Source: Bacteroidales bacterium (GTDB taxonomy: Bacteria; Bacteroidota; Bacteroidia; Bacteroidales; UBA932). From it: 64,000 bases of DNA. Below are positions 1-62,160 of the stretch, in pieces. The stretch spans positions 8,374 through 72,373 of the forward strand of contig JAHDPK010000025.1 in the NCBI GenBank assembly GCA_018434395.1, in the 5' to 3' direction. Position 1 is the first letter of the stretch, and each line of letters starts with the position of its first letter. A program made the position numbers and the translations under genes. Below the pieces are notes generated by a model that worked only from the letters and a program-made list of their open reading frames with translations, had not been told where the DNA came from and did not search any database.

Positions 1-320
1 AAACCCCATGCATTCTTAATCCCAACTTTGTCACAAATAATATTAGCAGTCGCAGGGAATAGCATATCTGGAGTAACAGTTGCACAAATCAATATATCTA
101 TCTCATCTCTGTTCAGACCCGTTTTTTTAATGAGATCTTCCACGGCTAACGCTCCCATATGGGAAGTACCAAGTCCGTCTTCTTTAAGTATCCTTCTCTC
201 TTTAACGCCAATACGAGTCATAATCCACTCATCGCTTGTGTCAACCATTTTTGACAACTCATCATTTGTAAGAATATACTCTGGAAGGTATGCACCAATG
301 CCATTAATAACTGCTCTCAT
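1..320 (-). CDS. fabH: 3-oxoacyl-[ACP] synthase III (FabH), 5' part only; gene continues past window start
   Basis: Own translation of the minus strand from the ATG (complement of 318-320) gives MRAVINGIGAYLPEYILTNDELSKMVDTSDEWIMTRIGVKERRILKEDG..., a typical FabH N-terminus. It is not in the ORF track because there is no stop in the window. The + ORF 28..336 is its antisense shadow. Confidence 0.85.
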   Translation of the reverse strand, partial: MRAVINGIGAYLPEYILTNDELSKMVDTSDEWIMTRIGVKERRILKEDGLGTSHMGALAVEDLIKKTGLNRDEIDILICATVTPDMLFPATANIICDKVGIKNAWG

Positions 321-438
321 AATTAATTCACATTAAAACTTATCAGGAAAAATGTTTAAATTGAGGTGTTAAGCAAAAACCAAACCATTACCCTGAATAA
401 GAGTGGAACTGTATATATATATAAAATTATAAAAAACA

Positions 439-621
439 CTATGATGATGATTTCTGAATCATCAAACGGCCTCTATAATAGCCACATTCAGGACAGACAT
501 GATGATATATAACTGCAGCACCACAATTGGAGCAGTGAGCAAGTGTTGGAACTTCCACACGGTCATGAGTTCTTCTCTTATCCCTGCGTGCTTTTGAAAT
601 CTTGTGTTTCGGATGTGCCAT
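439..621 (-). CDS. rpmF: 50S ribosomal protein L32
   Basis: 60 aa starting MAHPKHKISKARRDKRR, with a CxxC...CxxC zinc ribbon. Sits in the classic yceD-rpmF-fabH neighbourhood. Confidence 0.95.
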   Translation of the reverse strand: MAHPKHKISKARRDKRRTHDRVEVPTLAHCSNCGAAVIYHHVCPECGYYRGRLMIQKSSS

Positions 622-637
622 TTCTTAAATATTTTAC

Positions 638-1162
638 TTATAAATTCAACAATTCATTTAACTTAAAAAAAGGTGAAACATTGTCTGAAGGCGAATGTTC
701 TCCCTCAGCAGTTTTCAACCTCAGAATCATTTCAGGATCACACAATCCCTCTTCATGCACCATGTGTACAGGCAGAGAGAGAGTTATATAATCATAAAAA
801 AACTGACTCAGGTCAAGCACAGTCTCAGATGGGTCAATACTAACAATTTCAATAGCATCATTCTCCTCTCCCTCCTCTCTTACAAGTCTGACAAGAAGTG
901 ATGCTTCTGTTTCAACAGGCATGATCAATTCATCAAGGCATCTGTCACAATCCACAGTAACGTTACCATGAAATCTTGAAACAATCTTAATCCAAGACTC
1001 GCTTTTTTCCAAAGCGGTGTCAATCTCAATGGCCGCTTTATGGACAATAGAGTTTTCAAAATTATCGAAAAAACTGTTCCCAACCGAGAAGTTATAATAA
1101 TGCATCCCGCTTTTTAACCCTTTGACTGGAACCGAGTACTCCCTGTCCATTTTTATTTCCAT
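638..1162 (-). CDS. YceD/DUF177 family protein (23S rRNA accumulation protein)
   Basis: Acidic protein with a CDRCL...C motif directly upstream of rpmF. The first ATG is at complement 1160-1162; the track start at 1180 is a non-ATG extension. Confidence 0.8.
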   Translation of the reverse strand: MEIKMDREYSVPVKGLKSGMHYYNFSVGNSFFDNFENSIVHKAAIEIDTALEKSESWIKIVSRFHGNVTVDCDRCLDELIMPVETEASLLVRLVREEGEENDAIEIVSIDPSETVLDLSQFFYDYITLSLPVHMVHEEGLCDPEMILRLKTAEGEHSPSDNVSPFFKLNELLNL

Positions 1163-19364: not shown

Positions 19365-19448
19365 TGCCCAGAACAAGACTCGAACTTGCACACCGAAACC
19401 GGCACTACCCCCTCAAAGTAGCGTGTCTACCAATTCCACCATCTGGGC
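19365..19448 (-). tRNA. tRNA-Leu (anticodon GAG)
   Basis: Reverse complement GCCCAGATGGTGGAATTGGTAGACACGCTACTTTGAGGGGGTAGTGCCGGTTTCGGTGTGCAAGTTCGAGTCTTGTTCTGGGCA folds as a cloverleaf. It has a 7-bp acceptor stem, anticodon loop TTGAGGG, long variable arm and GTTCGAGTC T-loop. No encoded CCA. Confidence 0.9.
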
Positions 19449-29606: not shown

Positions 29607-29680
29607 TGACCCCGACAGGATTCAAACCTGTAACCTTCTGATCCGTAGTCAGATACTCTATTCAGTTGAGCTACGGGGCC
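29607..29680 (-). tRNA. tRNA-Arg (anticodon ACG)
   Basis: Reverse complement GGCCCCGTAGCTCAACTGAATAGAGTATCTGACTACGGATCAGAAGGTTACAGGTTTGAATCCTGTCGGGGTCA. Cloverleaf with anticodon stem TCTGA/TCAGA and loop CTACGGA. Confidence 0.9.
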
Positions 29681-47162: not shown

Positions 47163-49070
47163 ATGGGAAAGATAATTGGAATTGACCTTGGTACAACCAA
47201 CTCCTGCGTTGCTGTAATGGAGGGAAATGAACCTACAGTCATAATTAACAGCGAAGGCAAAAGAACCACACCTTCGGTTGTTGCTTTTACCGAAAATGGT
47301 GAAAGAAAAGTTGGTGATCCTGCGAAAAGACAGGCTATAACAAATCCGGTAAGGACTATCTACTCAATTAAGAGATTCATGGGAGAGCCTTATGACAAGG
47401 TTAAAACTGAAATTGAACGTGTCACATACAAGGTTGAAAAGGGTGAAAATAATACAACCCGTATAAATATAGATGGGCGTCTTTATACTCCACAGGAGAT
47501 ATCAGCAATGATTCTTCAAAAGATGAAAAAGACAGCCGAAGACTATCTTGGACAAGAGGTTACTGAAGCTGTGATTACAGTTCCTGCATATTTCAGCGAT
47601 TCTCAAAGGCAAGCCACAAAAGAGGCCGGAGAGATAGCAGGCCTCAAAGTTAGAAGAATTATCAACGAACCTACAGCTGCTGCTCTCGCATATGGTCTTG
47701 ACAAGACTCATAAAGATATGAAGGTTGCCGTTTTCGACCTTGGTGGAGGTACATTCGATATATCTATACTCGAATTGGGTGATGGAGTATTTGAGGTAAA
47801 ATCCACAAATGGGGATACTCACCTTGGTGGTGATGACTTTGACCAAAAGATAATAGACTGGCTGGCAGAAGAGTTTATGAATGAAAACAGTGGCATTGAC
47901 CTGAGAAAAGATCCTATGGCGCTGCAAAGACTCAAGGAAGCAGCTGAAAAAGCTAAAATAGAGTTGTCAAGCCAAACAACCACAGAGATTAATCTTCCGT
48001 ACATCATGCCGGTTGATGGTATTCCTAAACACCTTGTAAAGACTTTGACTCGAGCAAAATTTGAACAACTTTGTGATTCCTTGATACAAAGAACTGTTGA
48101 ACCATGTCGCAAGGCATTAAGTGGTGCAAACCTTAAACCTTCGGACATCGATGAAGTAATTCTCGTTGGAGGTTCTACAAGAATACCTGCTGTACAACAG
48201 CTTGTTGAAAAATTCTTTGGCAAAACTCCAAGCAAAGGCGTTAACCCGGATGAGGTAGTTGCTGTAGGTGCTGCTATCCAGGGAGGTGTGCTTGCCGGAG
48301 ATGTTAAGGATGTGCTGTTACTCGATGTTACACCACTTTCTCTTGGTATCGAGACTTACGGTTCAGTAATGACAAAACTTATAGATGCAAATACAACTAT
48401 ACCAACCAGAAAGTCTGAAATCTTCAGCACTGCCAGCGACAATCAACCTTCTGTAGAGATTCACGTCCTTCAAGGTGAAAGACCAATGGCTAAGGACAAT
48501 AAAACTATCGGTCGTTTCCATCTGGACGGAATAGCTCCTGCTCCAAGAGGTGTGCCTCAAATTGAAGTTACCTTTGACATTGATGCTAACGGTATTCTGA
48601 ATGTCTCAGCAAAAGACAAAGGTACTGGCAAGGAGCAAAAAATACGTATTGAAGCATCATCAGGACTAACTGAGGCTGAAATCAAGAGAATGCGTGACGA
48701 AGCAAAAGCCAATGAAGCCGCTGATAGAGCCGAAAGAGAGAGAGTTGACAAAATCAACGCTGCAGATGGAATGATCTTCCAAACCGAGAAAAATCTTAAG
48801 GATTATGGAGACAAGATACCTGCAGACAAGAGAAGTGCAATTGAAAGTGCTCTTGCTCAACTCAAGGAAGCTCATAAAGCAGGAGATATAGCAGCCATCG
48901 ACAAAGCCATGGATAATATGAACAACGCATGGCACGCCGCTTCTGAAGACATGGCAAGAGCTGCTCAAAGTGGGCCTTCACAAAGTTCTTCCAGTGATTC
49001 AGGCTCTTCCACTGGCAGCAACGGCAGCGATAAAGAGGTCACCGATGTTGACTTTGAGGAAGTAAAGTAA
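47163..49070 (+). CDS. dnaK: molecular chaperone DnaK (Hsp70)
   Basis: [25 protein letters not shown] and a C-terminal acidic tail DVDFEEVK. Confidence 0.98.
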
Positions 49071-49105
49071 ACACAGAAACAAGTCTTAATCAAAAATAAG
49101 TAAAA

Positions 49106-49139
49106 AGCGGTAGTACAATGTGCTACTGCTTTTTTTTTG
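49106..49139 (+). terminator. rho-independent terminator of dnaK
   Basis: agcggtag / ctactgct 8-bp stem (one G-U pair) with a 9-nt loop, followed by T9 (49131-49139). Confidence 0.8.
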
Positions 49140-49430
49140 TTAAAAAAACTTACAATGTTCGGCGTTGGTCGCGCGTTGGACAAAAAATTGAGTATTCCTC
49201 ACAAAACGGCCAAAAGATACGTTTCCGACATCTGCAAAAACTGCAAGTTAATCCTTACAAAACACGATGAATACGCCAAAGTTTAACCCTCTAAGCCCCG
49301 CTTTCAAGTTTGAAACAAAATATTCTTTTTTTAAACTGGGATATCTAAAACTTATATTTATAAATCATTTTTAATATCAAAAAAAATCTTATTTTTGGAT
49401 AAAAGCTGTCAAGTCAAAATATCTACCACA

Positions 49431-49750
49431 ATGTTATTCTCAAACAGATTAAGACAATTACGAGCACAAAACAATCTACTACAACGCCAAATGTCTGCTG
49501 CTCTCCAATCGATACATGTCTATACAACAAAACAGAGCGCGGCGAACGCCGTGTTAAACGCGAACAGGTTATTGCACTTGCCAAAATATTCAAAGTAAAT
49601 CCAAACGATTTTTTATCCCTTTGGCTTTCCGACCGGATTATTGAAGTGTTAAAAAAAGAAAAAGAGTTGGCAGAAAAAGGATTGATTGTTGTACAAAAAT
49701 ATCTTAAAAATAATGTCAAAATTATCCGAAAGAATATTATCTATTATTGA
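49431..49750 (+). pseudogene. XRE-family HTH regulator disrupted by a 1-nt frameshift near 49506-49510
   Basis: One frame gives MLFSNRLRQLRAQNNLLQRQMSAALQ. From 49508 a different frame gives IDTCLYNKTERGERRVKREQVIALAKIFKVNPNDFLSLWLSDRIIEVLKKEKELAEKGL... Joined, they form a complete XRE HTH (…QMSAALQIDTCLYNKTERGER…). The sequence caatc looks like caaatc minus one A. Confidence 0.6.
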
Positions 49751-51050
49751 AGAATTAATAGACCAATACCAAGAGGACGACCGCTATAATCGTCCTTGGA
49801 TAATTGGTTTTAGCGGAGGAAAAGATTCTACCGTTCTGCTTACTTTGGTCTGGCTTGCACTTCTAAAAATCAAAGAAGACACCCCAAATGCAACTCTTAA
49901 GCGACAAGTTTATGTTGTTTGCAATGATACAATGGTAGAAAATCCTGTAATTGAAGAATATGTTAGTAATGTCCTACAAACCATTCAAAAAGCCGCCAAA
50001 GAACAGCAGCTACCGATTACAGTAAAAACTACCACACCACAAATTGAAGATACATTTTGGTGTTGCGTAATTGGCAAGGGTTATCCTGTGCCAAATAATT
50101 CATTCCGTTTCTGTACGGAAAAAATGAAGATTAAACCGACCTCAACATTAATAACCCATCAAGTCGCGGCGGACGGCGAAGCAATAATTCTAATCGGAAC
50201 ACGACTTGCAGAAAGTCAACAGCGGGCAAAATCAATCAAAAAACACGATATAAAAGGACACCGACTTTCAAAGCATCCGCTAAACCCAAACACTTACACT
50301 TATGCACCAATTAAAGAATTGATGTTAGAAGAAGTATGGTGGATTATCAATGCAATTCCTTCGCCTTGGGGCTTTGACAATCAGATTCTTTATAAAATCT
50401 ATATGGACGCTTCGGCAGACGATTACGAATGTCCTACTATTGTAACCAATGATTCCCACCGTAGCTGCGGACAAAGTCGCTTTGGTTGTTGGGTTTGCAC
50501 GGTTGTAAAAGAAGACAAATCAATGTCATCACTAATAAAAAACGGTGTTGGGTGGATGCAGCCCTTACTTGATTTTCGTAACAAATTGGTTGAAAATCGC
50601 AATGTTTCCGAAAAACGCAGTGAAACCCGGCGAAACGGACAAGCCGCCGTTGATAAAACAGGGCATAATATGGGCAACTACACAATGGAATACCGCATAC
50701 AACTTTTGCGGGAACTGCTCACAATCCAAAAAGACACACAGCAGTACCGTTCAAGCATTGACTTGATTACAAGCCAAGAACTGATTGCAATTCAAGTGAT
50801 GTGGTACAGGGACGGCAATTTTTCAACAACCGTAAATGATATTTACAACGAGGTTTATGGCTACGATTTGCAAAACGATAATATCAGTTTACAGGAAAGG
50901 CTTCTGCTCGAAAAATCATGCAACAATCCCGCTCATTATTCGCTCATTCAGGAGTTGCTTGCTTTGCAAAAAAATAAGGTACTGCTAATGAAAAAGTACG
51001 GACTTCAAACCGATTTAGAAGCTCGATTGGATAGTTTTATAAAGGGGTAA
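49713..51050 (+). CDS. dndC: DNA phosphorothioation sulfurtransferase DndC (PAPS-reductase/ATP-PPase fold)
   Basis: IIGFSGGKDST P-loop (SGGKDS at 49812-49829), FRFCTEKMKIKP and the Cys cluster CGQSRFGCWVCT. ATG at 49713. Confidence 0.9.
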   Translation: MSKLSERILSIIEELIDQYQEDDRYNRPWIIGFSGGKDSTVLLTLVWLALLKIKEDTPNATLKRQVYVVCNDTMVENPVIEEYVSNVLQTIQKAAKEQQLPITVKTTTPQIEDTFWCCVIGKGYPVPNNSFRFCTEKMKIKPTSTLITHQVAADGEAIILIGTRLAESQQRAKSIKKHDIKGHRLSKHPLNPNTYTYAPIKELMLEEVWWIINAIPSPWGFDNQILYKIYMDASADDYECPTIVTNDSHRSCGQSRFGCWVCTVVKEDKSMSSLIKNGVGWMQPLLDFRNKLVENRNVSEKRSETRRNGQAAVDKTGHNMGNYTMEYRIQLLRELLTIQKDTQQYRSSIDLITSQELIAIQVMWYRDGNFSTTVNDIYNEVYGYDLQNDNISLQERLLLEKSCNNPAHYSLIQELLALQKNKVLLMKKYGLQTDLEARLDSFIKG

Positions 51051-51054
51051 CAGT

Positions 51055-53172
51055 ATGAAAATAAAAACCATAGAACTAAATAATTACCGCCTCTATAAAG
51101 GGATTAATAAAATTGTTTTTCCAAATGGGAACAACAAGAATTTATACTTGATTTCTGGAGAAAACGGCTTTGGTAAAACTACATTTTTGCATTCTCTATT
51201 ATGGTGCTTATATGGTCGTTTGATGATAGATATTGATGAAACATTTCGTAAAGAAATGTCGAATGGAGGATACAACAATATGGTTATCAATAATCTAAAT
51301 CAAATTTGCAGACAAAAATTGCATACTGAAGTTACCCAAAGTATTCTTACACGCATAAAAAAAGAAGGTTATTCTGTTGATACTGAATTCATAAAAGAAT
51401 GGTCTCAATATTATGTTACTTTGGAATTTACAGATATACTTATTCCGTCAATTCCGTGTCAATCGTTGAAAATTATTCGTTCGTACGATATTCTTTTAGA
51501 TAAAGAAAATGTTGAAATTCTAATTGATGGCTTAATAAACGAATTGACAAGCGAAATTGGAAATGAGGTTTTTATTAATGATTTTATTCTCAATAAAGAT
51601 ATTGCTCGCTTCTTCTTTTTCGATTCAGAAAAAATTGTATCACTCGCTGAAACTAATACCATAGATGAAAAGCGCAAACTTTGTTCGGCTTACAATGAGG
51701 TTTTGGGAGTGAAAAAATACGAGGACTTGAAGAAAAACCTTGAAAATATGCGCTTACGTTTCCGTCGTAAATCTGATGATGTTGATAGCCGCAACAAATT
51801 GAACAGTTTACTTTCAAAACAAAAATCTCTGAATGAAACCATTGCTGAACAAGAACAACAAACCGCCGACCTCGACAGCCAACTGATATTGTTAAGAAAG
51901 GAAGATGAAAACCTGCAAATGCTACTTTTGCGAGAAGGCAATGGTACAACTATCGAAGAACTCAATCGGCAGGAAGCACTTTTGGAAACCACTCGAAAAA
52001 AAGATGCTGAATACAAACAACAACTCAAACTGTTTTTGGAATACGCACCTTTTGCAATTTCCGGAAAACTGTTACAGCAGACAAAAGTACAGATAGAGAA
52101 GGATTTTAATATTCTTCAATCTCAAAATGATGTTAGAAATCAGAATTTTCTATTAAGCAATATCAATGCTGAAATGCAGCAAGTGTTCAACAATATAAAA
52201 ATTTCTGCCAAAGACAAAAAACAATTAGTTGATTCGTTTAACAATATTATTTCCAAATATCAAACCAATACAACAGACGAAACGCCATTATTGAGAGTAA
52301 GCAAGGAAGATTTCGACGAGTTTTTGGCTGTATATTCAAATATTACAACAACTTACAGAGTTGAATTTGAGTACCTTGCAGATGATTACCGTAAAAACAA
52401 ACAGGTAATGGAACGTACAGCCAGGAATATATCTAATATGAACAGTAAAGAAAATGATAATATAATAAAATCTATTCGTAGACGAAAAAATGAAAGTGAA
52501 CGAAGAATTGCTGAATTGGAACAAAAAATCCGTCAGTTGCACGAGGAGCGTGGCGCAATAAACAAAGAATTAGCAGTTATAAGTCGCCAAATTTCGGAGT
52601 TAAGTAAAAAAGTGAGTCTTGATGATAGTAACAGCAAGAAAGATAAAGTTGCTGAGCAACTTATATCAGAACTAAATACATTTCTTATTTTACTGAAAAA
52701 AGAAAAAAAATCGGCTCTTGAAAGCCGTATAAAAACCACGATGAACAACTTAATGCATAAGGCAGATTTTATCCAAAATGTTGATGTTGTGGTGGTAGAT
52801 GATATAATAGATATAAATCTTTATGCTACAGTGGGTAGCATAATAAAAAAAGAATCTTTATCGAAAGGGGAGCAACAACTCTTTGCAACTTCTCTACTCA
52901 AAGCACTTGTGGAAGAATCAGGTATACAATTTCCTGTCTTTATTGACAGTCCCTTACAGAAGTTTGATAAGAGCCACGCAAAAAAAATCATTACAGAGTT
53001 TTACCCAACAGTTTCCAAACAGGTTATTTTATTCCCATTGTTACATAAAGAGTTAACTGAAGAAGAATTGGAAACAATGAAGCCTTATGTGAATTCCGCT
53101 TTTGTGCTGAAAAATAATAATTTATATTCACACATTCAGCAGGTTGATATTAATAATTTAATGAAAGAGTAA
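51055..53172 (+). CDS. dndD: DNA phosphorothioation ABC/SMC-like ATPase DndD
   Basis: IELNNYRLYKG...ISGENGFGKTTFLHSLLWCLYG (Walker A at 51157-51183), long central coiled coil, signature LSKGEQQLFA and Walker B FPVFIDSPL. Confidence 0.85.
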   Translation: MKIKTIELNNYRLYKGINKIVFPNGNNKNLYLISGENGFGKTTFLHSLLWCLYGRLMIDIDETFRKEMSNGGYNNMVINNLNQICRQKLHTEVTQSILTRIKKEGYSVDTEFIKEWSQYYVTLEFTDILIPSIPCQSLKIIRSYDILLDKENVEILIDGLINELTSEIGNEVFINDFILNKDIARFFFFDSEKIVSLAETNTIDEKRKLCSAYNEVLGVKKYEDLKKNLENMRLRFRRKSDDVDSRNKLNSLLSKQKSLNETIAEQEQQTADLDSQLILLRKEDENLQMLLLREGNGTTIEELNRQEALLETTRKKDAEYKQQLKLFLEYAPFAISGKLLQQTKVQIEKDFNILQSQNDVRNQNFLLSNINAEMQQVFNNIKISAKDKKQLVDSFNNIISKYQTNTTDETPLLRVSKEDFDEFLAVYSNITTTYRVEFEYLADDYRKNKQVMERTARNISNMNSKENDNIIKSIRRRKNESERRIAELEQKIRQLHEERGAINKELAVISRQISELSKKVSLDDSNSKKDKVAEQLISELNTFLILLKKEKKSALESRIKTTMNNLMHKADFIQNVDVVVVDDIIDINLYATVGSIIKKESLSKGEQQLFATSLLKALVEESGIQFPVFIDSPLQKFDKSHAKKIITEFYPTVSKQVILFPLLHKELTEEELETMKPYVNSAFVLKNNNLYSHIQQVDINNLMKE

Positions 53173-53175
53173 GTT

Positions 53176-53571
53176 ATGTTTTCGCAGATACGGACGAGTA
53201 GTCAAAACCGAGAAATTGTTGTTGAATTAACGCGTAAATTCAATTTGGGTGCTGAAAATATAATTGCCCGAATTGCGCTTGGATATTCATTACAATCAGG
53301 GATTAAATTCTCACCGTTGGATGTAAAAGACTCAGGCGGTAAGGTATATAGCAAAAATGTGTTGTTTGGAAATAACTATTCGATCTATGAATTTCTAATT
53401 TGTACACATTATCAGATTAACAGTAACGACAAAGATTTACCTCGGTATTTTAAATTGCACCTTGATGATGGGCTGCAACGTATATATGATGACATGAAAG
53501 ACAATCCCAATTTAGTGGGATATGATTATTTATTTGAAAAAATACAAAATGGTTTGGGTGAATTATGTTAA
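53176..53571 (+). CDS. dndE: DNA sulfur modification protein DndE
   Basis: 131 aa directly after dndD. IRTSSQNREIVVELTRKFNLGAENIIARIALGYSL parallels the DndE N-terminus as I remember it (…TGITPNIAARIAF..S…). Confidence 0.7.
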   Translation: MFSQIRTSSQNREIVVELTRKFNLGAENIIARIALGYSLQSGIKFSPLDVKDSGGKVYSKNVLFGNNYSIYEFLICTHYQINSNDKDLPRYFKLHLDDGLQRIYDDMKDNPNLVGYDYLFEKIQNGLGELC

Positions 53572-55868
53572 AAGGAGATTTAAAAAAAATTACAATTAAA
53601 GATTTGCTGAGAGATGGCAAAATATCTGTTCGCACAAGTAATTGTTGCTTTAATGCAGCCTTTGAATCTCTTTTTGATATATTAAAATATTATGAAAGTA
53701 GACATTCTTTTTTTAACATTAGAAATGCTGGAAGAAAAACTTGTTCTGAATTAGAAAATTTATGTAAAGAATATATTCCGCAAATTGAAATATCCGTTGA
53801 TACAGATGGCTTTTCTGAGAATGAAAATGAGGCTGAGAATGAAAATGTAAGACAAGCCGAAGTAGAAATTTTAATTAAGGAGGATGTTATTGGAGCAATT
53901 AATAATAAACTAATAGATGACAAAGATATTCTTTCTTATTTGGGAGTAAGGCAAAAGGAAATTCTTGAGAAAAAATTTGAAGATTGTATTAAAAAATATT
54001 CCATTCGCACAAAAAATCGACTAACTTCCGTTGGCTTTGATAATTTTGTGATTAATTATTTATTTGTCGAAAACCAGGCTCTATTAAAGATTAATGGTTT
54101 AGGAAAAAAGAGTTTAGAAGAGGCTATAGATTTGAAAAATAAAATAAAAGAGGAATGCCTATATTTAATTAATTTACCCGAAGAAGATATAGCAAGATTA
54201 AATTTGGTTCGCAAAAAAGTAGATATCATTCTAAATAGCTTTGTTGATGAATTTTATAAGATAAATAATTATTTGCCAATGTTTTGGATTTTGGAACAAA
54301 ATCTCGTTACAAGCAAAAATCGCAATATTGACATTCTGATAGACACATTCCCTGTTTTTCAAAATTACCAATCCAGAACATTTAAAGATATTGCAGCAAA
54401 ATATGATATAACAAGAAAAAGAATTAGGCAAATACGTAACTACACATTTCACAATACATTTGAAATAACCAATGAAGTAATTGATTATAAGAAAAATAGT
54501 GATTTAATCAAATACGCCGAATTGTTACAAAATAAAGATGATTGGAAATATATTTTAGAATTTTTGCAGGGTAAAGAGGTTATAAACCAAGAATCATTTG
54601 AGATTCAAGAATTATTGAAAAAAGAACAATGCAATCTATCGGCTCTGTTTGTATTGCAAATCATTGCATATATATTCAGGGATAAATACTTTCTTTTGGG
54701 CGGATTGAGCATATCAAATCAAAGTAAAAATAACACATTTCTCATCCGTAAAGAATTCGCAGACATTTTCAATTTTGAAAAATTTATTGAAGAATTTGCG
54801 AGCCATATTGCTGAAAATGAAACAGAATATGATTTAAATGTTGACGAGTTTTTATCTAATAGTACGTGTTGGGTTCATGGGATTGATCTATATAAATTTG
54901 ATAATATAGTTCACATTGTGAAAGAGATTATATTAAATGAATTTCACTTATATTCTAATCTTGACGGTTTAATTACGATTCCTTCAACGAAAGGAAGAAA
55001 CCCGCGTGATGTGGTTTATGATATACTAAAAGTAAAAGGCGAACCAATGCACCTCCATGATATTTTTGTTGAGTTTAAGAAAATTATGCCAGAACATAAA
55101 TACACACAAGAAGATAATCCAGATAGATTACGCCCCTATTTACAAAAGCACGAATCCATATCATACAGAAACAGAAGGAGTATTTACACACTAAAAGAGT
55201 GGAAACACATACGGACAGGAACAATACGTGATGCTATCATAAATTTTTTGGAAGATAAAGATTTACCACAATCAGTAGATGATATTACAGAGTATGTTTT
55301 ACTGCATTTCCCAGAAACAAACATTGCAAGTGTGCGAACAAGTATGTTTAATGATACACAAAAACGATTTTCGTTTTTTGGTGATGGCCTGTTTGGATTA
55401 GTAAGCAAAGAATATCCTGCCGAATACAAAGAAATAAAACAGCAGGAAGGACAAAGAAAATCGTTTGAACAACGACTTTATGATTTAGAAAAGTTTCTTT
55501 CCGAAAACGACCATTACCCTTTTTCTTCTTCCGATAACGAAGAAGAAAACTCTTTGTATCGTTGGTGGCGAATAATAAATAGAGACCCAAAATTGTCCGA
55601 ACTCCAAAAGGCAGAAATAGAAAGAATAAAAAATCAATATGCAGATTTCGATACAGAAAAAAAAGTTTACGAATGGTTTTGTCATTTCAATGATTTTAAA
55701 CTTTTTGTGCTTGAAAATCACCGTTTACCTTCATCAAACGGTCCAGAAAAATTTTTGTATGGTTGGTTCCGTAGAGCAAAAGACGATTTTTTAAACGATC
55801 GTTTAAATGAGAAACAAAGGACAAAATATGCAGAATTTTTTAAAGAGATAAAGTATGTTGAAAGATAA
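53565..55868 (+). CDS. 767-aa multi-DNA-binding-domain protein (2x RpoA-alphaCTD-like HhH, sigma70-r4-like HTH, 2x HARE-HTH-like, 2x helicase-associated (HA)-like repeats)
   Basis: aa 9-68 and 128-190 match the alphaCTD pattern (SVRTSNC..NA...N.G.K..SE.). aa 272-293 is DIAAKYDITRKRIRQIRN. aa 481-616 holds two wHTH-like units. aa 634-762 holds W/F-rich repeats. No catalytic motif was seen. Confidence 0.55.
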   Translation: MLKGDLKKITIKDLLRDGKISVRTSNCCFNAAFESLFDILKYYESRHSFFNIRNAGRKTCSELENLCKEYIPQIEISVDTDGFSENENEAENENVRQAEVEILIKEDVIGAINNKLIDDKDILSYLGVRQKEILEKKFEDCIKKYSIRTKNRLTSVGFDNFVINYLFVENQALLKINGLGKKSLEEAIDLKNKIKEECLYLINLPEEDIARLNLVRKKVDIILNSFVDEFYKINNYLPMFWILEQNLVTSKNRNIDILIDTFPVFQNYQSRTFKDIAAKYDITRKRIRQIRNYTFHNTFEITNEVIDYKKNSDLIKYAELLQNKDDWKYILEFLQGKEVINQESFEIQELLKKEQCNLSALFVLQIIAYIFRDKYFLLGGLSISNQSKNNTFLIRKEFADIFNFEKFIEEFASHIAENETEYDLNVDEFLSNSTCWVHGIDLYKFDNIVHIVKEIILNEFHLYSNLDGLITIPSTKGRNPRDVVYDILKVKGEPMHLHDIFVEFKKIMPEHKYTQEDNPDRLRPYLQKHESISYRNRRSIYTLKEWKHIRTGTIRDAIINFLEDKDLPQSVDDITEYVLLHFPETNIASVRTSMFNDTQKRFSFFGDGLFGLVSKEYPAEYKEIKQQEGQRKSFEQRLYDLEKFLSENDHYPFSSSDNEEENSLYRWWRIINRDPKLSELQKAEIERIKNQYADFDTEKKVYEWFCHFNDFKLFVLENHRLPSSNGPEKFLYGWFRRAKDDFLNDRLNEKQRTKYAEFFKEIKYVER

Positions 55869-58023
55869 AGATTTCAAATACAGATATTCAACAGGCAGAA
55901 AAGATTTGCCGATTGATTTTTTTGAGTTGGCATTGTCTAATAGCACTAAACTTGATATAGGGTTGGGTTATTTTAGTAGTGCTTCTTTTAATATCCTTTC
56001 TGTCGGCTTTGCTCGTTTTATCTGTAATGGAGGAAATATGCGTTTGTATATCAATCAATATCTTACCGAAGATGATTACAAACTACTACAGAACAATGAA
56101 ACTATTGATTTTGAAGAACGTATATTACAATCTTTTTTCTTACTAAAAACTACCTTATCGAAAAGGGACGAACATTTTTTCAAATGTTTGTCATATCTTA
56201 TTAGGAATAAAAGAATTGATATTAAAATAGTTATACCAAAGGATGGTGGTTTGGCACACGAAAAGTTTGGTATTTTTACAGATGATAACAACGATAAAGT
56301 GTCTTTTACCGGCTCAATGAATTTAACAGCTGCGGCATTGGTAAAAAACATTGAAACAATTGAATGTACTTGTTCATGGAAAGGTGAAGACAACACGGAA
56401 CGTATAGAAATAAGCGAACAAGATTTTGCGGAAATTTGGACAGGGGCAAACGACAATGTGTTAGTTTTTCCTGCAAAGAAATTCTGCCAAGAGATAGTAA
56501 AAACTTTTCCCAAAGTAGATTTGGACGAGTTGTTATTACAAGAGAAAGAAATAATTAAGAAACTCACAAACAAACAGATAGAAGAAATATCGACGGAAAA
56601 GAAACAAGTACAATTGCCTCATTTCCCTTACAAATATTCTGACGGTGCAAGACCGTATCAAATACAAGCGTACGAAGCGTGGGTTAAAAATGGTAAGCAG
56701 GGTATTTTTGCAATGGCAACAGGAACAGGAAAAACAATTACTTCTTTAAATTGCGCTTTGCAGGAGTACCATAAAGACAAATCGTATCAACTTTTGATTT
56801 TAGTTCCGACCATTGCTTTAGTTGAACAGTGGATTAATGAAATTGGCTTGTTTGACTTCAAAAATATTATCGAAATATATTCTGAAAATTCACAGTGGCG
56901 CAGACAAATTGTTTCACTAAAAAACAAAATTCAACAAGGCAGTAACGAAAATTTTGTCATTGTATCTACTTATCAATCATTTACAAACGATGATTTTCAA
57001 CAAATTTTACCGAAACTTCCCGATACAATGCTACTGATTGCAGATGAAGCACACAATATCGGCTCTGAAAATGTTAGAGCGGCTTTTAGAAAAATGAAAA
57101 TTAAAAAGCGCATTGCATTGTCGGCAACTCCGAACCGGATATACGACCAAGAAGGAACAGCCGAATTGGAAAGTTTTTTTAATGATAAACCGCCTTATGT
57201 TTATAGTTTTCCAATGAGCCAAGCAATAAAAGAAGGTCGTTTAATGGAGTACTGTTATTATCCAAAAATGGTTTATCTCAACGAGCCGGAAATGGATAAG
57301 TATGTGGAATATACTAAAAAATTAATGAATCTGTTTGATAGTGAAACAGGTAAGCTCAGAAACGAAGACGAAGCGACAAAAATTTTAATGTTGCGGAAAC
57401 AAGTATTGCATAAAGCAGAAGATAAAATGCGAGTATTGCGAGAAATTATTACAGAAATCGGACAGGACAAATTAAAATACTGTTTTGTTTATGTTCCCGA
57501 AGGCTATTCTGAAAACGAGGATGAAAGCATATTGCAAAGAATGCTATACACTATCAAAGAAGCATTTCCTAAAACAACTTGCAATACATATACTGGAAAT
57601 AACAACAAAAAAGAGCGTTCCGCTATTTTGAGTGGTTTTGAAAACGGCGACATAGCTGTTTTACTCGCAATGAAATGTTTAGACGAGGGCGTTGATGTTC
57701 CTAGAGCCCAATATGGTATTTTTGCGTCAAGCACAGGTAATCCTCGACAATTTATTCAACGTCGTGGTCGTTTACTACGTAAACACCCGGACAAAACATT
57801 TGCTTACATATATGATATGATTGTAGTACCTGATTTTCAATCACCACAATACTCGAATGATTTTTTCAGAATGGAAAGGTCATTGGTAAGAGGCGAACTA
57901 GCACGAGTGGCATATTTTGCTGATTTGGCATCTAACACTCATTCTGCGAAAGAGGTTTTGCAGGGTCTTGCAGACTATTATCAATTAAATTTATCAGAAC
58001 TAATTTTAAGTATAAATCAATAA
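55855..58023 (+). CDS. PLD-family (HKD) nuclease domain fused to an SF2 DEAH-box helicase (type III restriction Res-like)
   Basis: HKD motif AHEKFGIFTDD...FTGSMNLT (H135/K137 at 56257-56265). Helicase motif I AMATGTGKT (56716-56736), motif II DEAH (57043-57054), SATP, and motif VI QRRGRLLR. Confidence 0.85.
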   Translation: MLKDKDFKYRYSTGRKDLPIDFFELALSNSTKLDIGLGYFSSASFNILSVGFARFICNGGNMRLYINQYLTEDDYKLLQNNETIDFEERILQSFFLLKTTLSKRDEHFFKCLSYLIRNKRIDIKIVIPKDGGLAHEKFGIFTDDNNDKVSFTGSMNLTAAALVKNIETIECTCSWKGEDNTERIEISEQDFAEIWTGANDNVLVFPAKKFCQEIVKTFPKVDLDELLLQEKEIIKKLTNKQIEEISTEKKQVQLPHFPYKYSDGARPYQIQAYEAWVKNGKQGIFAMATGTGKTITSLNCALQEYHKDKSYQLLILVPTIALVEQWINEIGLFDFKNIIEIYSENSQWRRQIVSLKNKIQQGSNENFVIVSTYQSFTNDDFQQILPKLPDTMLLIADEAHNIGSENVRAAFRKMKIKKRIALSATPNRIYDQEGTAELESFFNDKPPYVYSFPMSQAIKEGRLMEYCYYPKMVYLNEPEMDKYVEYTKKLMNLFDSETGKLRNEDEATKILMLRKQVLHKAEDKMRVLREIITEIGQDKLKYCFVYVPEGYSENEDESILQRMLYTIKEAFPKTTCNTYTGNNNKKERSAILSGFENGDIAVLLAMKCLDEGVDVPRAQYGIFASSTGNPRQFIQRRGRLLRKHPDKTFAYIYDMIVVPDFQSPQYSNDFFRMERSLVRGELARVAYFADLASNTHSAKEVLQGLADYYQLNLSELILSINQ

Positions 58024-58034
58024 ATTTTCAAGAA

Positions 58035-58253
58035 ATGACAGCAGAAGATATTTTCAACGAGGTGATGAAATCGCCAGAATTAACAGACATTTTCAACATT
58101 CCACAAGAAGTTCTGAATAATATGGATTACAATGCGAGTTCGGAATATCAGGTCATTGAAGTTATCAAAGCAATTATTCGTGGGGAAGAAAACCATATGG
58201 ATAGTAACGCAATTTTTAGAAGTATTCAAAATCAAATAATACACTTAGGGTAA
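58035..58253 (+). CDS. 72-aa acidic hypothetical protein
   Basis: ORF tightly packed between the helicase (11-nt gap) and the ATPase (3-nt gap). No recognisable motif. Confidence 0.4.
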   Translation: MTAEDIFNEVMKSPELTDIFNIPQEVLNNMDYNASSEYQVIEVIKAIIRGEENHMDSNAIFRSIQNQIIHLG

Positions 58254-58256
58254 AAT

Positions 58257-60428
58257 ATGGCGACAATAATTAAATCCATTAGTTTCCAAAACTTCTACAA
58301 CTATTACGGAAATTTTGAGCAAAACACCTACCGTTTTACGACAGGAATCAATATTGTTAATGCTGATAACAATATGGGAAAATCCAAATTCTACAACGGT
58401 ATTCTCTGGATTTTGAATAATGCTGTTTACGATTCAGACTTAAAAAGAATGATAAGCGACACCTCCAGTCCAAGATTAGATTCTAATTATTTTAAAAAAA
58501 TGGTCTCGGGAAAAGCAAAAGCCGAAGAAACGGAGTTTGATATGGGAGTAAAAATTGAATTTGAAGAAAATAACACTCAATATTCTGTGTCAAAAATTGT
58601 GCATTGTAAAAAAAATATTTCTGATTGGGATTTTATTGAAAGATTAGATGTTTCTGAAACCACCAATGGCAGAACAATTCCTATTTTTGATATTGAGGAT
58701 AAGAAAAATAGAATACAAAAAATCATTCCTGTTGAATTACGAAACTACGCGTTGCTGCAAGGTGAATCAATGGAAAAATTAGTTGATTTATCCTCTCGCG
58801 CTGGTCTTTCCTCAACCATTGAAACTTTGGCTGGAATTTCAAATCTCATTGATATTTATTTGACTTGTGGTGATTTGTCAAAGAAAGCAAAGAGACTTTT
58901 AAACGACAAAGAAACTGAAGTGAACCTCAATAATGATCGAATCAAAATTTTAATTGAGGAAAGAGAGCGACTTGAAAAGTTCAAAGAAAACAACCTGTAT
59001 CAAATTGATACATATAAGGAAGAATTATCAAAAGCCCAAGCAAGGAAAGATGAGTTGGAAGCATTGCAGCTTAACGCAGCTAAACGAGAAAAATTTAGAG
59101 AAATTCAACGGCATCTCCAAGTGGAAATCAACACTCTGAAAAACAATAAGAAAGAAGCGGAGAAAAACATTACTTCATTATTATTTGCTAACAATCCACC
59201 TTGGTTGCTGATGGGCTTCCAAAACTCTATAGAATTGTTTGGGCAGAAACGCGACAAACTGAATAAAGACCTTACTTTGCAAAGTGCAGCAAAAGACCCA
59301 ACGATTCTTTTACCTGAAGGCTCTCCCGATATCCCGTCATTAAAAAGAATGTTAGAAACTGAAAAATGTGAAGTTTGCGGACGTCCAGCTCCAAAAGGTT
59401 CTGAATTTTGGGAACATATCAAAATGGTTATGGAACGTCCTCGAAATGTCGAAAATACAAATTCTAACAATTTTACTACTTTTTACGGAGATATTCAGAA
59501 AACTGTCGGTTCATTTTTGTTGAATATCCCAGAAATACCACAAGAAATTGAAAAATATCGCGACAAAATCAATGACATTGACAATAAAATCAGAGAGAAA
59601 CAGGAAGATTACAACATTGCAAAACAGGAATTTATGAGTGCAGGCGGTAATGAAAACGAATCAGGTAATACAGATAAAAAAAATATTGATGATCATTCAT
59701 TAGCAGAACGCACAATAGAAGATAAAAAACGCTTAATTGAAATGGCTAACGACCAAATTAGGCAATGGAATATTCGATTGCAACAGATTGAAAAAGAATT
59801 GGATTCTATCAATCAAAGTTCAGAAATCACACAATATCGTAATTTCAAAGATATGATGTGTTATATTGAGTCAATGTTTTTAAACTCGAAAGAACGCATT
59901 TTTGATAGGATTTTGAACTCGTTAGAAATCAAAGCTAATCAAAAATATAGCGAACTTACAGCGGGCAATCAGGTTGCAGGTGGTCGCTTATGTTTCAAAA
60001 AACAAGAAGATAATACCGTTCAGGTTTCCATAAGGAACATAAATGACAACGAACTAACAGGACTTGGATCAGGGTTCCAGCGAATGAAACAACTGTCTAT
60101 CGTAATGGCAATTATTTCTTCGAGAATTGGCAATCAACACTTTGATTTTCCGTTTATATCAGATGCACCGTTTTCCGAGTTTGGCGACAACTTTATTTAC
60201 AACTTTTTCCGAATTTCCCCTCAGGTATTTACGCAAAGTATCATACTTATCAAAGATTTATATGACCCCAATACAGATAATTATTTGAATGAAAAGGGGA
60301 ACAAAATTTTAGAGAAGATGAGAAGCGGCGAGATTTGCGGCACTTTCTATGTAAATACTGTACTAGAAAGAGCTGATGCAACAAATTTAGTTACAAATAA
60401 TAAATGTTATTTTCCAGATAAATTCTAA
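58257..60428 (+). CDS. Rad50/SMC/DndD-like ATPase with central CxxC
   Basis: N-terminal ISFQNFYNY...NADNNMGKSKF (Walker A at 58362-58385) and long K/E-rich coiled-coil segments. CEVC lies at aa 371-374 of 723 (59367-59378). C-terminal signature-like GLGSGFQRMKQLS and Walker B-like FPFISDAPF. Confidence 0.75.
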   Translation: MATIIKSISFQNFYNYYGNFEQNTYRFTTGINIVNADNNMGKSKFYNGILWILNNAVYDSDLKRMISDTSSPRLDSNYFKKMVSGKAKAEETEFDMGVKIEFEENNTQYSVSKIVHCKKNISDWDFIERLDVSETTNGRTIPIFDIEDKKNRIQKIIPVELRNYALLQGESMEKLVDLSSRAGLSSTIETLAGISNLIDIYLTCGDLSKKAKRLLNDKETEVNLNNDRIKILIEERERLEKFKENNLYQIDTYKEELSKAQARKDELEALQLNAAKREKFREIQRHLQVEINTLKNNKKEAEKNITSLLFANNPPWLLMGFQNSIELFGQKRDKLNKDLTLQSAAKDPTILLPEGSPDIPSLKRMLETEKCEVCGRPAPKGSEFWEHIKMVMERPRNVENTNSNNFTTFYGDIQKTVGSFLLNIPEIPQEIEKYRDKINDIDNKIREKQEDYNIAKQEFMSAGGNENESGNTDKKNIDDHSLAERTIEDKKRLIEMANDQIRQWNIRLQQIEKELDSINQSSEITQYRNFKDMMCYIESMFLNSKERIFDRILNSLEIKANQKYSELTAGNQVAGGRLCFKKQEDNTVQVSIRNINDNELTGLGSGFQRMKQLSIVMAIISSRIGNQHFDFPFISDAPFSEFGDNFIYNFFRISPQVFTQSIILIKDLYDPNTDNYLNEKGNKILEKMRSGEICGTFYVNTVLERADATNLVTNNKCYFPDKF

Positions 60429-60432
60429 AACA

Positions 60433-60933
60433 ATGGACGGTTCAGTATTAAAAGATAAAATAGGCCAAAAAAGACCCGGGTATAGAGAACAATATCGTTC
60501 TTTGATTGAAAGTATTTCGGTTAAAGGAGACACAAGCGGAAAAGGGGATTTTTCTGCCTTTGGAGCTTTCTATCAAACCTATATGTATGCTTTTGTTATT
60601 GGTTACAAATTAGGAACACCAAAATTTATAAAAAAAGGTGAAAATACAATCAATTTTGCTTCTTTCGTAGATTGGAAGCCAACTTTAGTAAGGGATTTTA
60701 TTTTGATGCTGTTACTCAATGATACAGAAAAATATAGTGTTCCATATTCTTGGTTAGAATTGGAGAATGCTAACGAAGAAACGATTGAGAATTTTATTGC
60801 CGAATTGTTTCGACAAATGGAAGGTTATGCAAATGCGGGTTTTGAATATTTGCAAGACAAGTGGGATAATGAAAAGATTGAGTTTCAAGACCCATTTGTG
60901 TTTGTTAATTTTTTATTGGGCTTGAAAGAGTAA
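60433..60933 (+). CDS. 166-aa hypothetical protein, last intact gene of the dnd-linked operon
   Basis: 4-nt gap after the ATPase gene. No catalytic motif. It may belong to the database family named DNA phosphorothioation-associated protein 4, but I cannot verify this. Confidence 0.45.
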   Translation: MDGSVLKDKIGQKRPGYREQYRSLIESISVKGDTSGKGDFSAFGAFYQTYMYAFVIGYKLGTPKFIKKGENTINFASFVDWKPTLVRDFILMLLLNDTEKYSVPYSWLELENANEETIENFIAELFRQMEGYANAGFEYLQDKWDNEKIEFQDPFVFVNFLLGLKE

Positions 60934-61188: not shown

Positions 61189-62160
61189 TAATTACAATCT
61201 TTTTACAATTACACCTTTAAATGTTCTAAAATAACTTGCATTATCGATAGAAAAATTGTATATTTAGCTGTAATTTAATTTGTTAGATATGCAACATGTT
61301 ATTGGTGAAGATAGAAATCAGTTCCAAATTATGTGTTTAGAACAATTGGTTCCGGAAAATTCCTGGGCAAGAGTAATTGATCTATTTGTTGAATTACTTC
61401 CTCGACTACATTGACAAAAAAGTTGCAGAATATGAAGCTCAATTAGACGAGTCTGATGCAGAGGATAAGGCAGTTCTCAAGGAAAAGATTCAATTGAAAC
61501 TTAACAGATGCCAAAAATAAATTACTAGTTCATTCTCATATTAGAGGTACAACAGACAAACGAGAACTGGCTACTGTTGCACTCGAAGTACAAGAATTAC
61601 TGGGGAAAGAAACTTTTAATACTCTCAGTGATGCAGGTTACTCTACAGATGATCAGCTTAGTATTTGTAAGGATTCCAGTATTTGCACTTATTCGTCACC
61701 TATGCCAAGCACTTCACCTTATGATAATTGCCTGCCCATCCGGTGAAAGGATGACTTGTGGCTCCGGTAAAAAATGTCAAATGAGAGAAATGTGCACGCA
61801 GAATAAAGGAGGGAGAGTTATCGAAAGAAGTGAATTTCAGGATATAATTGATGAGAACAATAGGAGAGTTATTGACAACCCTGATTATTACAAACTTCGA
61901 AGAGCAATAATTGAACATCCTTTACCATAATGAGGGGCAAGAAAAATGTAATGAGTGAAGCCTATATCCTTATGATTATTTATAATCTTAAACGTTGTTT
62001 GTCAATAATGGGAGAAAAAGACTTTAGAGATAAGATTTGTTGCCAATTTAATTGTAATAATAATTCCCATTATTTGAAAATCAATTTTATGAGAGCCTAA
62101 TATCCTTATTATAAAAACTAGTATAAAAAACCAATCAGTAGGCACTTCGTTTAAAAAGTG

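Follow-up and report, generated by a model that had tools for sequence, protein, structure and literature searches.

Downstream of dnaK in a 64,000-nucleotide stretch of DNA from a Bacteroidales bacterium (contig JAHDPK010000025.1; the whole stretch is called the window here) lies an operon in which dndC, dndD and dndE, genes for DNA phosphorothioate (PT) modification, are followed by five further genes, and the question that this locus raises is whether those five form a new kind of restriction partner. The initial annotation had called them 'unlike any characterised PT-dependent restriction partner' and had proposed an uncharacterised PT-linked effector module. The link to PT stood, as the module shares one operon with dndCDE, but the claim of novelty was wrong for four of the five genes, which had already been described as PbeABCD. 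Judged by its sequence, the locus is very probably the Bacteroidota version of the DndCDE–PbeABCD PT defence system, carried in a horizontally acquired defence island after dnaK; the remaining gene, here named X, is a conserved lineage-specific eighth gene that lies outside any described Dnd or Pbe system. We keep the earlier numbering, with an upstream gene as gene 1, dndCDE as genes 2–4, X as gene 5 and the pbe cassette as genes 6–9; coordinates are collected in Table 1.

Eight intact, coupled genes lie on the same strand in the order dndC-dndD-dndE-X-pbeA-pbeB-pbeC-pbeD, with junctions from dndC to pbeD of +4, +3, -7, -14, +11, +3 and +4 nt (negative values are overlaps), and are preceded by a pseudogene. 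Nine coupled open reading frames (ORFs) had been listed at first; eight ORFs and seven of the eight junctions were upheld, whereas gene 1 proved to be frameshifted and its junction of -38 nt is void. The eight-gene order, together with the 7-nt overlap of dndE and X, recurs in eight further independent loci, with protein identities of 38–98%, and the arrangement is thus not due to chance.

Genes 6–9 correspond to PbeABCD: PbeA and PbeC are identified by their matches, PbeB and PbeD are probable members by position and size. Searches with PADLOC models gave significant matches for PbeA and PbeC. PbeA matched model PDLC02706 with an E-value of 5.8e-252 (residues 11–709 against 3–722 of 722 model positions) and four more PADLOC PbeA models; its helicase half matched TIGR04095, 'DNA phosphorothioation system restriction enzyme' (E = 1.2e-127), and its Pfam domains are PLDc_2, ResIII and Helicase_C. 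The HKD motif (AHEKFG...GSMN, that is HxK...GSxN) and helicase motifs I (ATGTGKT), II (DEAH), III (SAT) and VI (QRRGRLLR) are conserved across six or seven related loci. Against the haloarchaeal proteins the window PbeA shows an identity of only about 30%, and BLAST barely detects PbeC. PbeC matched nine PADLOC PbeC models near full length (best E = 3.9e-23), with no DndD model among the matches listed, and its Walker A (GKS), Walker B and central CEVC (residues 371–374 of 723) do not vary among six loci. The initial description of a PLD(HKD)–superfamily 2 (SF2) helicase, a small acidic protein and an ATPase with a central CxxC was accurate, as was its pointer to pipeline families that have phosphorothioation in their names and are defined by co-occurrence.

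For PbeD the second of these families, TIGR04062 ('DNA phosphorothioation-associated protein 4'), gave a weak match (E = 0.0036, under the 74-bit cut-off). Among PbeD homologues, 22 of 45 matched TIGR04062 (best E = 2e-5, all far below the cut-off), and besides it only two one-off matches near the E-value limit were obtained; the weak match is apparently systematic. A precomputed Pfam family, PF27807, is assigned to a few PbeD homologues. PbeB homologues are 51–97% identical to the window protein across loci. The sizes of the cassette also compare well: 683/64/656/142 aa in the canonical cassette of a Halobaculum plasmid (L033) versus 722/72/723/166 aa in the window.

The possibility that genes 5–9 together constitute a novel effector that depends on PT and has no relation to DndFGH, SspE, SspFGH or PbeABCD would be in keeping with the lack of any match of the five downstream proteins to PADLOC models of DndF/G/H and SspE/F/G/H, and with gene 5 being undescribed. 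It is refuted by the full-length PbeA and PbeC matches, by the order and sizes of PbeB and PbeD and by the TIGR04095 and TIGR04062 links, and we give it almost no credence.

The name PbeABCD and the experiments on it come from Xiong et al. (2019, Nat Commun; PMC6459918), who described a four-gene cassette that follows the dnd genes in most archaeal dndCD clusters. The dndCDEA-pbeABCD genes of Haloterrigena jeotgali A29, expressed in Natrinema, lowered plaquing of virus SNJ1 about 10^4-fold; every pbe gene was needed, as was PT (shown with a DndA C344S mutant), and viral DNA replication was blocked with no visible DNA degradation (PMC6459918). PbeB and PbeD in that system have 66 and 152 aa, and the same work had already reported 235 bacterial pbeAC adjoining dndCD (PMC6459918), so that the earlier description of PbeABCD as archaeal does not hold. 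The H. jeotgali system is the only PT partner with the architecture found in the window: after the dnd genes come, in the same orientation, pbeA, a gene of about 70 aa, a coiled-coil ATPase and a gene of about 150 aa, and the PADLOC models of its family match the window PbeA over its full length. It differs in that the window has no dndA, that the host belongs to the Bacteroidota, and that dndE is parted from pbeA by the 767-aa multi-helix-turn-helix gene X.

The Aravind group (NAR 2024; PMC10853773) has equated PbeABCD with its own 'CxC ABC-ATPase' system, in which PbeA joins an HKD endoDNase to an SF2 helicase, PbeB is a small, rapidly evolving protein, PbeC an ABC ATPase with a CxC zinc hook at the apex of its coiled coil, and PbeD a cognate of DndE; the authors argue that the HKD nuclease must cut, in contrast to the 2019 experiments in which no cleavage was seen (PMC6459918). 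This parts list corresponds one for one to genes 6–9, including the central CxxC, and the published 'mix and match' of the system with canonical DndDE modules is also what pairwise identities show here. The difference is again X: searches of the full text of that paper found no component with RNA polymerase alpha subunit C-terminal domain (alpha-CTD), sigma-4 or HARE-HTH modules.

Genes 2–4 are DndC, DndD and DndE, as first proposed, by NCBIfam, PADLOC and Pfam matches. DndC matched TIGR03183 with 407.4 bits (cut-off 290.4) and the PADLOC DndC model with E = 1.2e-140, and carries the PP-loop SGGKDS and the cysteine cluster CGQSRFGCWVC. DndD matched TIGR03185 over its full length (E = 5.4e-60; 204 bits, under the 246-bit cut-off) and a PADLOC DndD model (E = 1e-75); its best PADLOC match was a model named for PbeC, PDLC02742 (E = 3e-115), ahead of every DndD model. 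The PADLOC PbeC model set appears to include DndD-like sequences, and because these models score DndD above the true PbeC, automated calls of this type can mislabel the ATPases of Dnd-Pbe loci and need checking. No ORF for dndA (cysteine desulfurase) or dndB was found between the dnaK terminator and a downstream insertion sequence (IS) remnant, the rest of the window not having been screened for a desulfurase; the operons of loci L020, L022 and L025 likewise have no ORF for either gene.

On the strength of family membership, DndC, DndD and DndE, with a desulfurase from elsewhere, would write PT marks on host DNA; PbeC and PbeD would scan or track along DNA; PbeA, combining HKD nuclease and SF2 translocase, would be the ATP-driven effector, with PbeB as a small acidic regulator; and unmarked invader DNA would be stopped.

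Protein X had been described at first as consisting solely of DNA-binding modules, and Pfam, PDB profile searches and Foldseek bear this out, with no enzymatic domain found by any of the three; nor did X match any PADLOC defence model. Pfam scans of 48 family members recognised alpha-CTD in 44, sigma70_r4 in 43, helicase-associated (HA) repeats in 15, and HARE-HTH and TFIIE_beta in six each; it is in these scans that the HARE-HTH, TFIIE-beta-like winged helix and HA repeats of the C-terminal third show. The DNA-contact positions of the first alpha-CTD are kept (R23, N26, C28, G56, K58 and T59, aligned with VRSxNCL...NxGKKS). The AlphaFold model of X is helical with small beta hairpins throughout (mean predicted local distance difference test score, pLDDT, 84; predicted template modelling score, pTM, 0.46, as expected for a beads-on-a-string build), and with Foldseek the full model found nothing in the PDB below E = 0.02, only scattered local winged-helix, sigma-4 and RpoE-like matches. 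Residues 299–478 modelled alone (pLDDT 82, pTM 0.78) form a tandem winged-helix-like fold with no significant Foldseek neighbour in the PDB (best E = 0.025); the idea that this segment is a hidden nuclease or an SRA-like reader was dropped on these results.

Related Bacteroidota loci were reached via homologues of X or PbeD (L001, L002, L020/21, L022, L025, L026-28, L029/30 and L031/32, plus an identical contig, L024), which with the window gives nine independent loci; L002 ends within pbeA, L031 begins within dndD and L032 within dndE. In each of the nine, X stands between dndE and pbeA, and the cassette keeps its A-B-C-D order. In the six loci with gene calls that span the junction (L020, L022, L025, L026, L029 and L031), X starts at least 7 nt inside dndE in every case and its end overlaps or abuts pbeA. 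The constant position and the contact with both neighbours would make X an integral component of the system. Its length varies (673, 724, 742–767 and 967 aa), mostly through the copy number of alpha-CTD. X is absent from the two non-Bacteroidota loci examined (haloarchaeal and Arthrobacter) and from the published archaeal locus, and since all of the Bacteroidota loci examined have it, the eight-gene form is a lineage-specific variant. Mobile-element genes (relaxase, MobC, TraG or integrase) or AbiE flank several of these loci.

Co-inheritance was examined through pairwise identities across eight loci (28 pairs, which are not independent). Dnd proteins co-vary with one another (rho 0.74), as do Pbe proteins (rho 0.59–0.80), while covariation between the two sets is lower (rho 0.18–0.65), which suggests that the Dnd and Pbe blocks recombine independently, in line with the 'mix and match' of the literature. 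X appears to be divided between them: residues 1–298 track DndD and DndE (rho 0.61 and 0.63, versus 0.20 for PbeC), and residues 299–478 track PbeA (rho 0.71). By these identities X is apparently the most divergent and fastest-evolving large protein of the operon, with a mean pairwise identity of 0.49 as against 0.66–0.78 for DndD, DndE, PbeA, PbeC and PbeD (PbeB, 0.62); conservation within X is highest in its C-terminal half, which does not resemble RNA polymerase. Compared with the window, L001 has Dnd proteins that are 86–89% identical, an X N-terminus at 66%, an X middle at 41% and a Pbe block at 55–74%, whereas L020 has Pbe proteins at 81–90%, an X middle at 73%, an X C-terminus at 79% and an X N-terminus at 43%. 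As these two loci share opposite parts of X with the window, recombination breakpoints appear to lie inside X, as would be the case if the N-terminal third served the writer and the rest the restriction module.

X may, tentatively, be a non-enzymatic DNA-binding adaptor or target-recognition subunit that bridges the Dnd and Pbe halves. Its alpha-CTD/sigma-4 N-terminus would work with DndD and DndE and its winged-helix/HARE-HTH/HA C-terminus with PbeA–D, and X would load the machinery on particular DNA or help to distinguish marked from unmarked DNA. The closest functional analogy would be the triple winged-helix proteins DndG (of DndFGH) and SspB (of SspABCD), which are non-enzymatic multi-winged-helix subunits of PT systems with a proposed part in target recognition or modification discrimination; unlike them, X gave no PADLOC or significant Foldseek match, is about 1.5 times larger and has other modules.

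Both alpha-CTD and sigma region 4 bind promoters, and with the DNA-contact residues kept they also fit a transcription regulator of the operon or of the defence island, in the role of DndB, BrxR or CapW and outside the enzymatic machinery. The slot is vacant, in that there is no dndB and an upstream XRE gene is a pseudogene in the window and in L001; members of the X family accompany several unrelated systems, as floating regulators do, and one homologue (in L004) stands alone. DndB, BrxR/WYL and CapW are likewise DNA binders that recur beside varied defence systems, and an X-family member closes the BREX operon of L006. These regulators, however, are small, have one or two domains, sense ligands and usually sit at the operon edge or divergently, none of which applies to X with its 670–970 aa and at least eight DNA-binding modules. 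X lies inside the operon and overlaps dndE, so that its synthesis would be coupled to that of the enzymes; the sequence 5' of dndC differs from locus to locus (in L020, dndC follows abiEii after 22 nt), which argues against a shared operator; and X is the fastest-evolving large protein, mosaic along module lines. A regulatory role is on this evidence rather unlikely.

The same modules could be read in another way. Phage T4 targets alpha-CTD via Alt and ModA and sigma-4 via AsiA, and X might be a decoy or guard that displays RNA polymerase surfaces, such that a phage takeover factor that binds or modifies X would switch on PbeABCD or, in other lineages, BREX or HerA systems. All three recognisable module types of its N-terminus and middle are RNA polymerase-derived (alpha-CTD, sigma-4 and the delta-subunit-like HARE-HTH), module copy number varies in this fast-evolving protein, and the family is common to mechanistically different defence systems. 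The idea is nevertheless purely inferential, with no phage partner known; conserved DNA-contact residues fit real DNA binding better than mimicry, and the part of X that is best conserved is not the one resembling RNA polymerase. We consider the decoy improbable.

To gauge the reach of the X family, 1.84 billion representative proteins were searched with a profile built on the C-terminal core of X; this gave 2,869 matches at E <= 1e-3, 1,414 at E <= 1e-10 and 798 at E <= 1e-30, mostly of 650–1,070 aa. A scan of the genome collection with the sigma-4 recognition helix pattern returned 19 loci and was dominated by sigma factors. Among 54 distant representatives (about 20–25% identity), alpha-CTD was found in 36, sigma70_r4 in 23 and HA in 15, and no enzymatic domain in any. 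Sorted by nearest neighbour, 144 X-core representatives resembled the Dnd-Pbe (70), HerA/GHKL (41), DndEi (25), bacteriophage exclusion (BREX; five) and standalone (three) types. No relatives of X were found in IMG/VR viral contigs.

The contexts other than Dnd-Pbe are varied. A BREX-type BrxC-PglZ-BrxL operon in a metagenome-assembled genome (MAG) of Candidatus Limimorpha (L006 1711-11575) has as its last gene an 836-aa X-family protein with alpha-CTD and sigma-4. In L005 (9989-16047), L009 (9998-16971) and L035 (434-6287), which derive from Flavobacterium, Saprospiraceae and a metagenome, an X-family gene (23–28% identity) lies just 5' of a DndD-like ATPase and a DndE-HerA/FtsK fusion. This is the DndEi arrangement (PMC7464106, PMC10853773), from which the window differs in having a plain DndE and no HerA. 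In L035 a 65-aa Sp-DndD gene stands between X and the DndD-like ATPase, with overlaps between the genes; in L005 and L009 the 10-kb surroundings yielded no DndC, and the gene calls of L035, where no search for DndC was made, list no PAPS_reduct family. In L023 (3253-12493) an 830-aa X-family protein is preceded by four genes, among them those for a HerA homologue (PDB 7f6d, E = 1e-38) and a GHKL/Hsp90-like ATPase; PADLOC recognised no system there, its sole matches being weak ones of the 550-aa HerA gene to mad8 and HerA. In candidate phyla radiation (CPR) bacteria and Bdellovibrionales (L008, L010, L013 and L015-L019) a short X-core form of about 350 aa, with sigma-4 helix-turn-helix, winged helices and HARE-HTH, heads a conserved trio, its partners being a protein of about 425 aa with no family match and a TrwB/HerA-like ATPase of 600–660 aa with a treble-clef zinc finger (mad8-like by PADLOC); the trio may represent a system not yet described, or a module of a mobile element. 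In a Prevotellaceae MAG (L004 9977-12112) a full-length X homologue (37% identity) lies downstream of carB, flanked by genes for an aminotransferase and a TMEM260-like protein, and dnd, pbe and other defence genes are absent within 10 kb; the homologue is either a relic or a sign of a defence-independent role. A second Prevotellaceae MAG (L003 3459-5612) has a similar X homologue, preceded by two further genes.

It is possible, though doubtful, that the X family as a whole is a large unnamed defence-associated family built of RNA polymerase-type modules, which provides a shared, fast-evolving targeting or sensing subunit for Dnd-Pbe, BREX, DndD/DndE-HerA and other HerA systems. In Dnd-Pbe, X would then be a physical link between writer and restriction machinery; at its boldest, the idea would make X a sensor of phage proteins that attack RNA polymerase.

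Several points weigh against the DndCDE–PbeABCD reading and the part given to X in it. The antiviral phenotype of Pbe is known from the haloarchaeal system only (PMC6459918). PbeB matched no PADLOC, NCBIfam or Pfam model, its size and synteny being its sole support; PbeD matches its family only below the curated cut-off, and hhalign on our own shallow alignments gave no signal between PbeD and DndE (probability 0.2%), so that the published statement of their relationship was not reproduced. The PADLOC label 'PbeC' discriminates poorly, given its strong DndD matches, and it is the CxxC and the position that carry that assignment. In an operon with neither dndA nor dndB, PT writing would rely on a putative desulfurase encoded elsewhere. 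The co-inheritance analysis, with eight loci and 28 non-independent pairs, is suggestive only; alpha-CTD together with sigma-4 is also expected of a transcription factor; and because the L004 homologue stands alone, X-family proteins need not depend on Dnd or Pbe. The locus could finally be taken for a decaying, non-functional relic, in view of the frameshifted upstream helix-turn-helix gene, the truncated downstream gene, the adjacent IS remnant and the missing dndA. All eight core ORFs are intact, however, with every catalytic motif checked conserved, and both a locus 94–98% identical to the window (L025) and the identical contig (L024) come from other samples; there is little likelihood that the locus is such a relic.

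The upstream boundary of the operon is the dnaK terminator, as first annotated, and dnaK itself was confirmed. Between terminator and dndC there is one match to TAnnTTTG, which we take to be the Bacteroidetes -7 promoter motif. Gene 1 cannot be read through: the frame opened at 49431 ends with a stop at 49598, and the C-terminal half of the XRE helix-turn-helix ("...ERGERRVKREQVIALAKIFKVNPNDF...") lies in another frame. It is the overlap of this second frame (stop at 49749) with the dndC ATG that had given the -38 junction, which requires the frameshift to be ignored. In L001, the closest relative by its Dnd proteins, the XRE gene (at about 780-1090) is independently broken by a frameshift and an in-frame stop, and upstream of dndC in L002, L020 and L022 it is absent, with an abiEii-type or relaxase gene in its place. 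The regulator seems to be decaying in parallel in the window and L001, and as a regulator of the operon it was rejected. The start of dndC is most likely the ATG at 49712, since this gives 445 aa as in homologues.

The downstream boundary, a gene fragment and an IS remnant in the initial annotation, could be identified on both counts. The fragment, still only +4 nt from pbeD, is a 60-aa remnant that, over 40 aa, shares 52% identity with the C-terminal end of the SLFN_AlbA_2/HATPase_c_4 gene found after pbeD in L022. Genes with SLFN_AlbA_2 and HATPase_c_4 domains (some with a helix-turn-helix) recur 3' of pbeD, immediately or one gene off (L022 17362-18687, L026 10518-11990 and L031 11241-12689), and may represent either another accessory of the system or a separate defence gene next to it. 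The IS region gave nothing against plasmids by blastn; a protein-level search was needed to recognise IS1182, with tblastn resemblance to transposases of that family at 61577-61930. Beyond it, the GC-rich 3' end contained no RNA in an Rfam scan and is occupied by hsdM. The hsdM region has 48–50% GC and the dnd-pbe operon about 33%, which suggests that the DNA after dnaK is a composite defence island of differing origins. The only two Rfam matches within the window are tRNA genes at 19365-19448 and 29607-29680 (-).

Table 1. Features of the dnd-pbe region and modules of protein X (window positions in nt; modules of X in residues).
Feature	Position	Strand	Basis or remark
dnaK	47163-49070		DnaK identity confirmed; gene directly before terminator
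Intrinsic terminator of dnaK, upstream boundary	49102..49144	+	15-pair stem at 49102-49134, then T tract
Candidate promoter TATTTTTG	49390..49397	+	sole TAnnTTTG match between terminator and dndC
XRE-type helix-turn-helix pseudogene (gene 1)	49431..49749	+	three-frame translation; frameshift near 49505-49515
dndC, PP-loop/Fe-S sulfurtransferase, 445 aa	ORF opens TTG 49686; ATG 49712..51050	+	TIGR03183, PADLOC
dndD, ABC/SMC-like ATPase	51055..53172	+	TIGR03185, PADLOC DndD
dndE	53176..53571	+	Pfam PF08870, 87 bits (cut-off 25)
X, multi-helix-turn-helix protein, 767 aa	53565..55868	+	PDB profile, Pfam (48 members), AF2, Foldseek; no PADLOC match
X: alpha-CTD	residues ~1-70		family profile vs PDB, E 7e-9
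X: coiled linker	between first alpha-CTD (~1-70) and second alpha-CTD-like module (~141-205)		
X: second, weaker alpha-CTD-like helix-hairpin-helix (HhH)	residues ~141-205		
X: sigma70 region 4	residues ~232-298		recognition helix TR(E/K)RIRQI nearly invariant
X: tandem winged helices	residues ~299-478		separate structure model
X: HARE-HTH + winged helix	residues ~479-625		Pfam scan of family members
X: two helicase-associated (HA) repeats	residues ~630-767		Pfam scan of family members
pbeA, HKD (PLD) nuclease domain fused to SF2 helicase, 722 aa	55855..58023	+	PADLOC PbeA, TIGR04095
pbeB, acidic small protein, 72 aa, isoelectric point 4.3	58035..58253	+	position and size only
pbeC, CxC-type ABC ATPase, 723 aa	58257..60428	+	PADLOC PbeC models, CxxC
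pbeD, dnd_assoc_4 family, 166 aa	60433..60933	+	TIGR04062 weak match, position, size
SLFN_AlbA_2/HATPase_c_4 gene remnant, 60 aa	60938..61120	+	tblastn to L022 18424-18543
IS1182-family transposase remnant, downstream boundary	61280..61930	+	broken ORFs
Type I restriction-modification M subunit (hsdM), at least 516 aa	62452-64000, runs past window end	+	EcoR124II HsdM, E 2e-183

The five-gene module as such changes little, PbeABCD being already known and recognisable by PADLOC. What is new here is that Bacteroidota Dnd-Pbe always carries the eighth gene X (in nine loci), which current defence-system definitions ignore. Apparently inherited in part with the writer and in part with the restriction module, X offers a handle on how PbeABCD finds and stops unmarked DNA, and a role established for it could carry over to the BREX and HerA-type systems in which its relatives sit.

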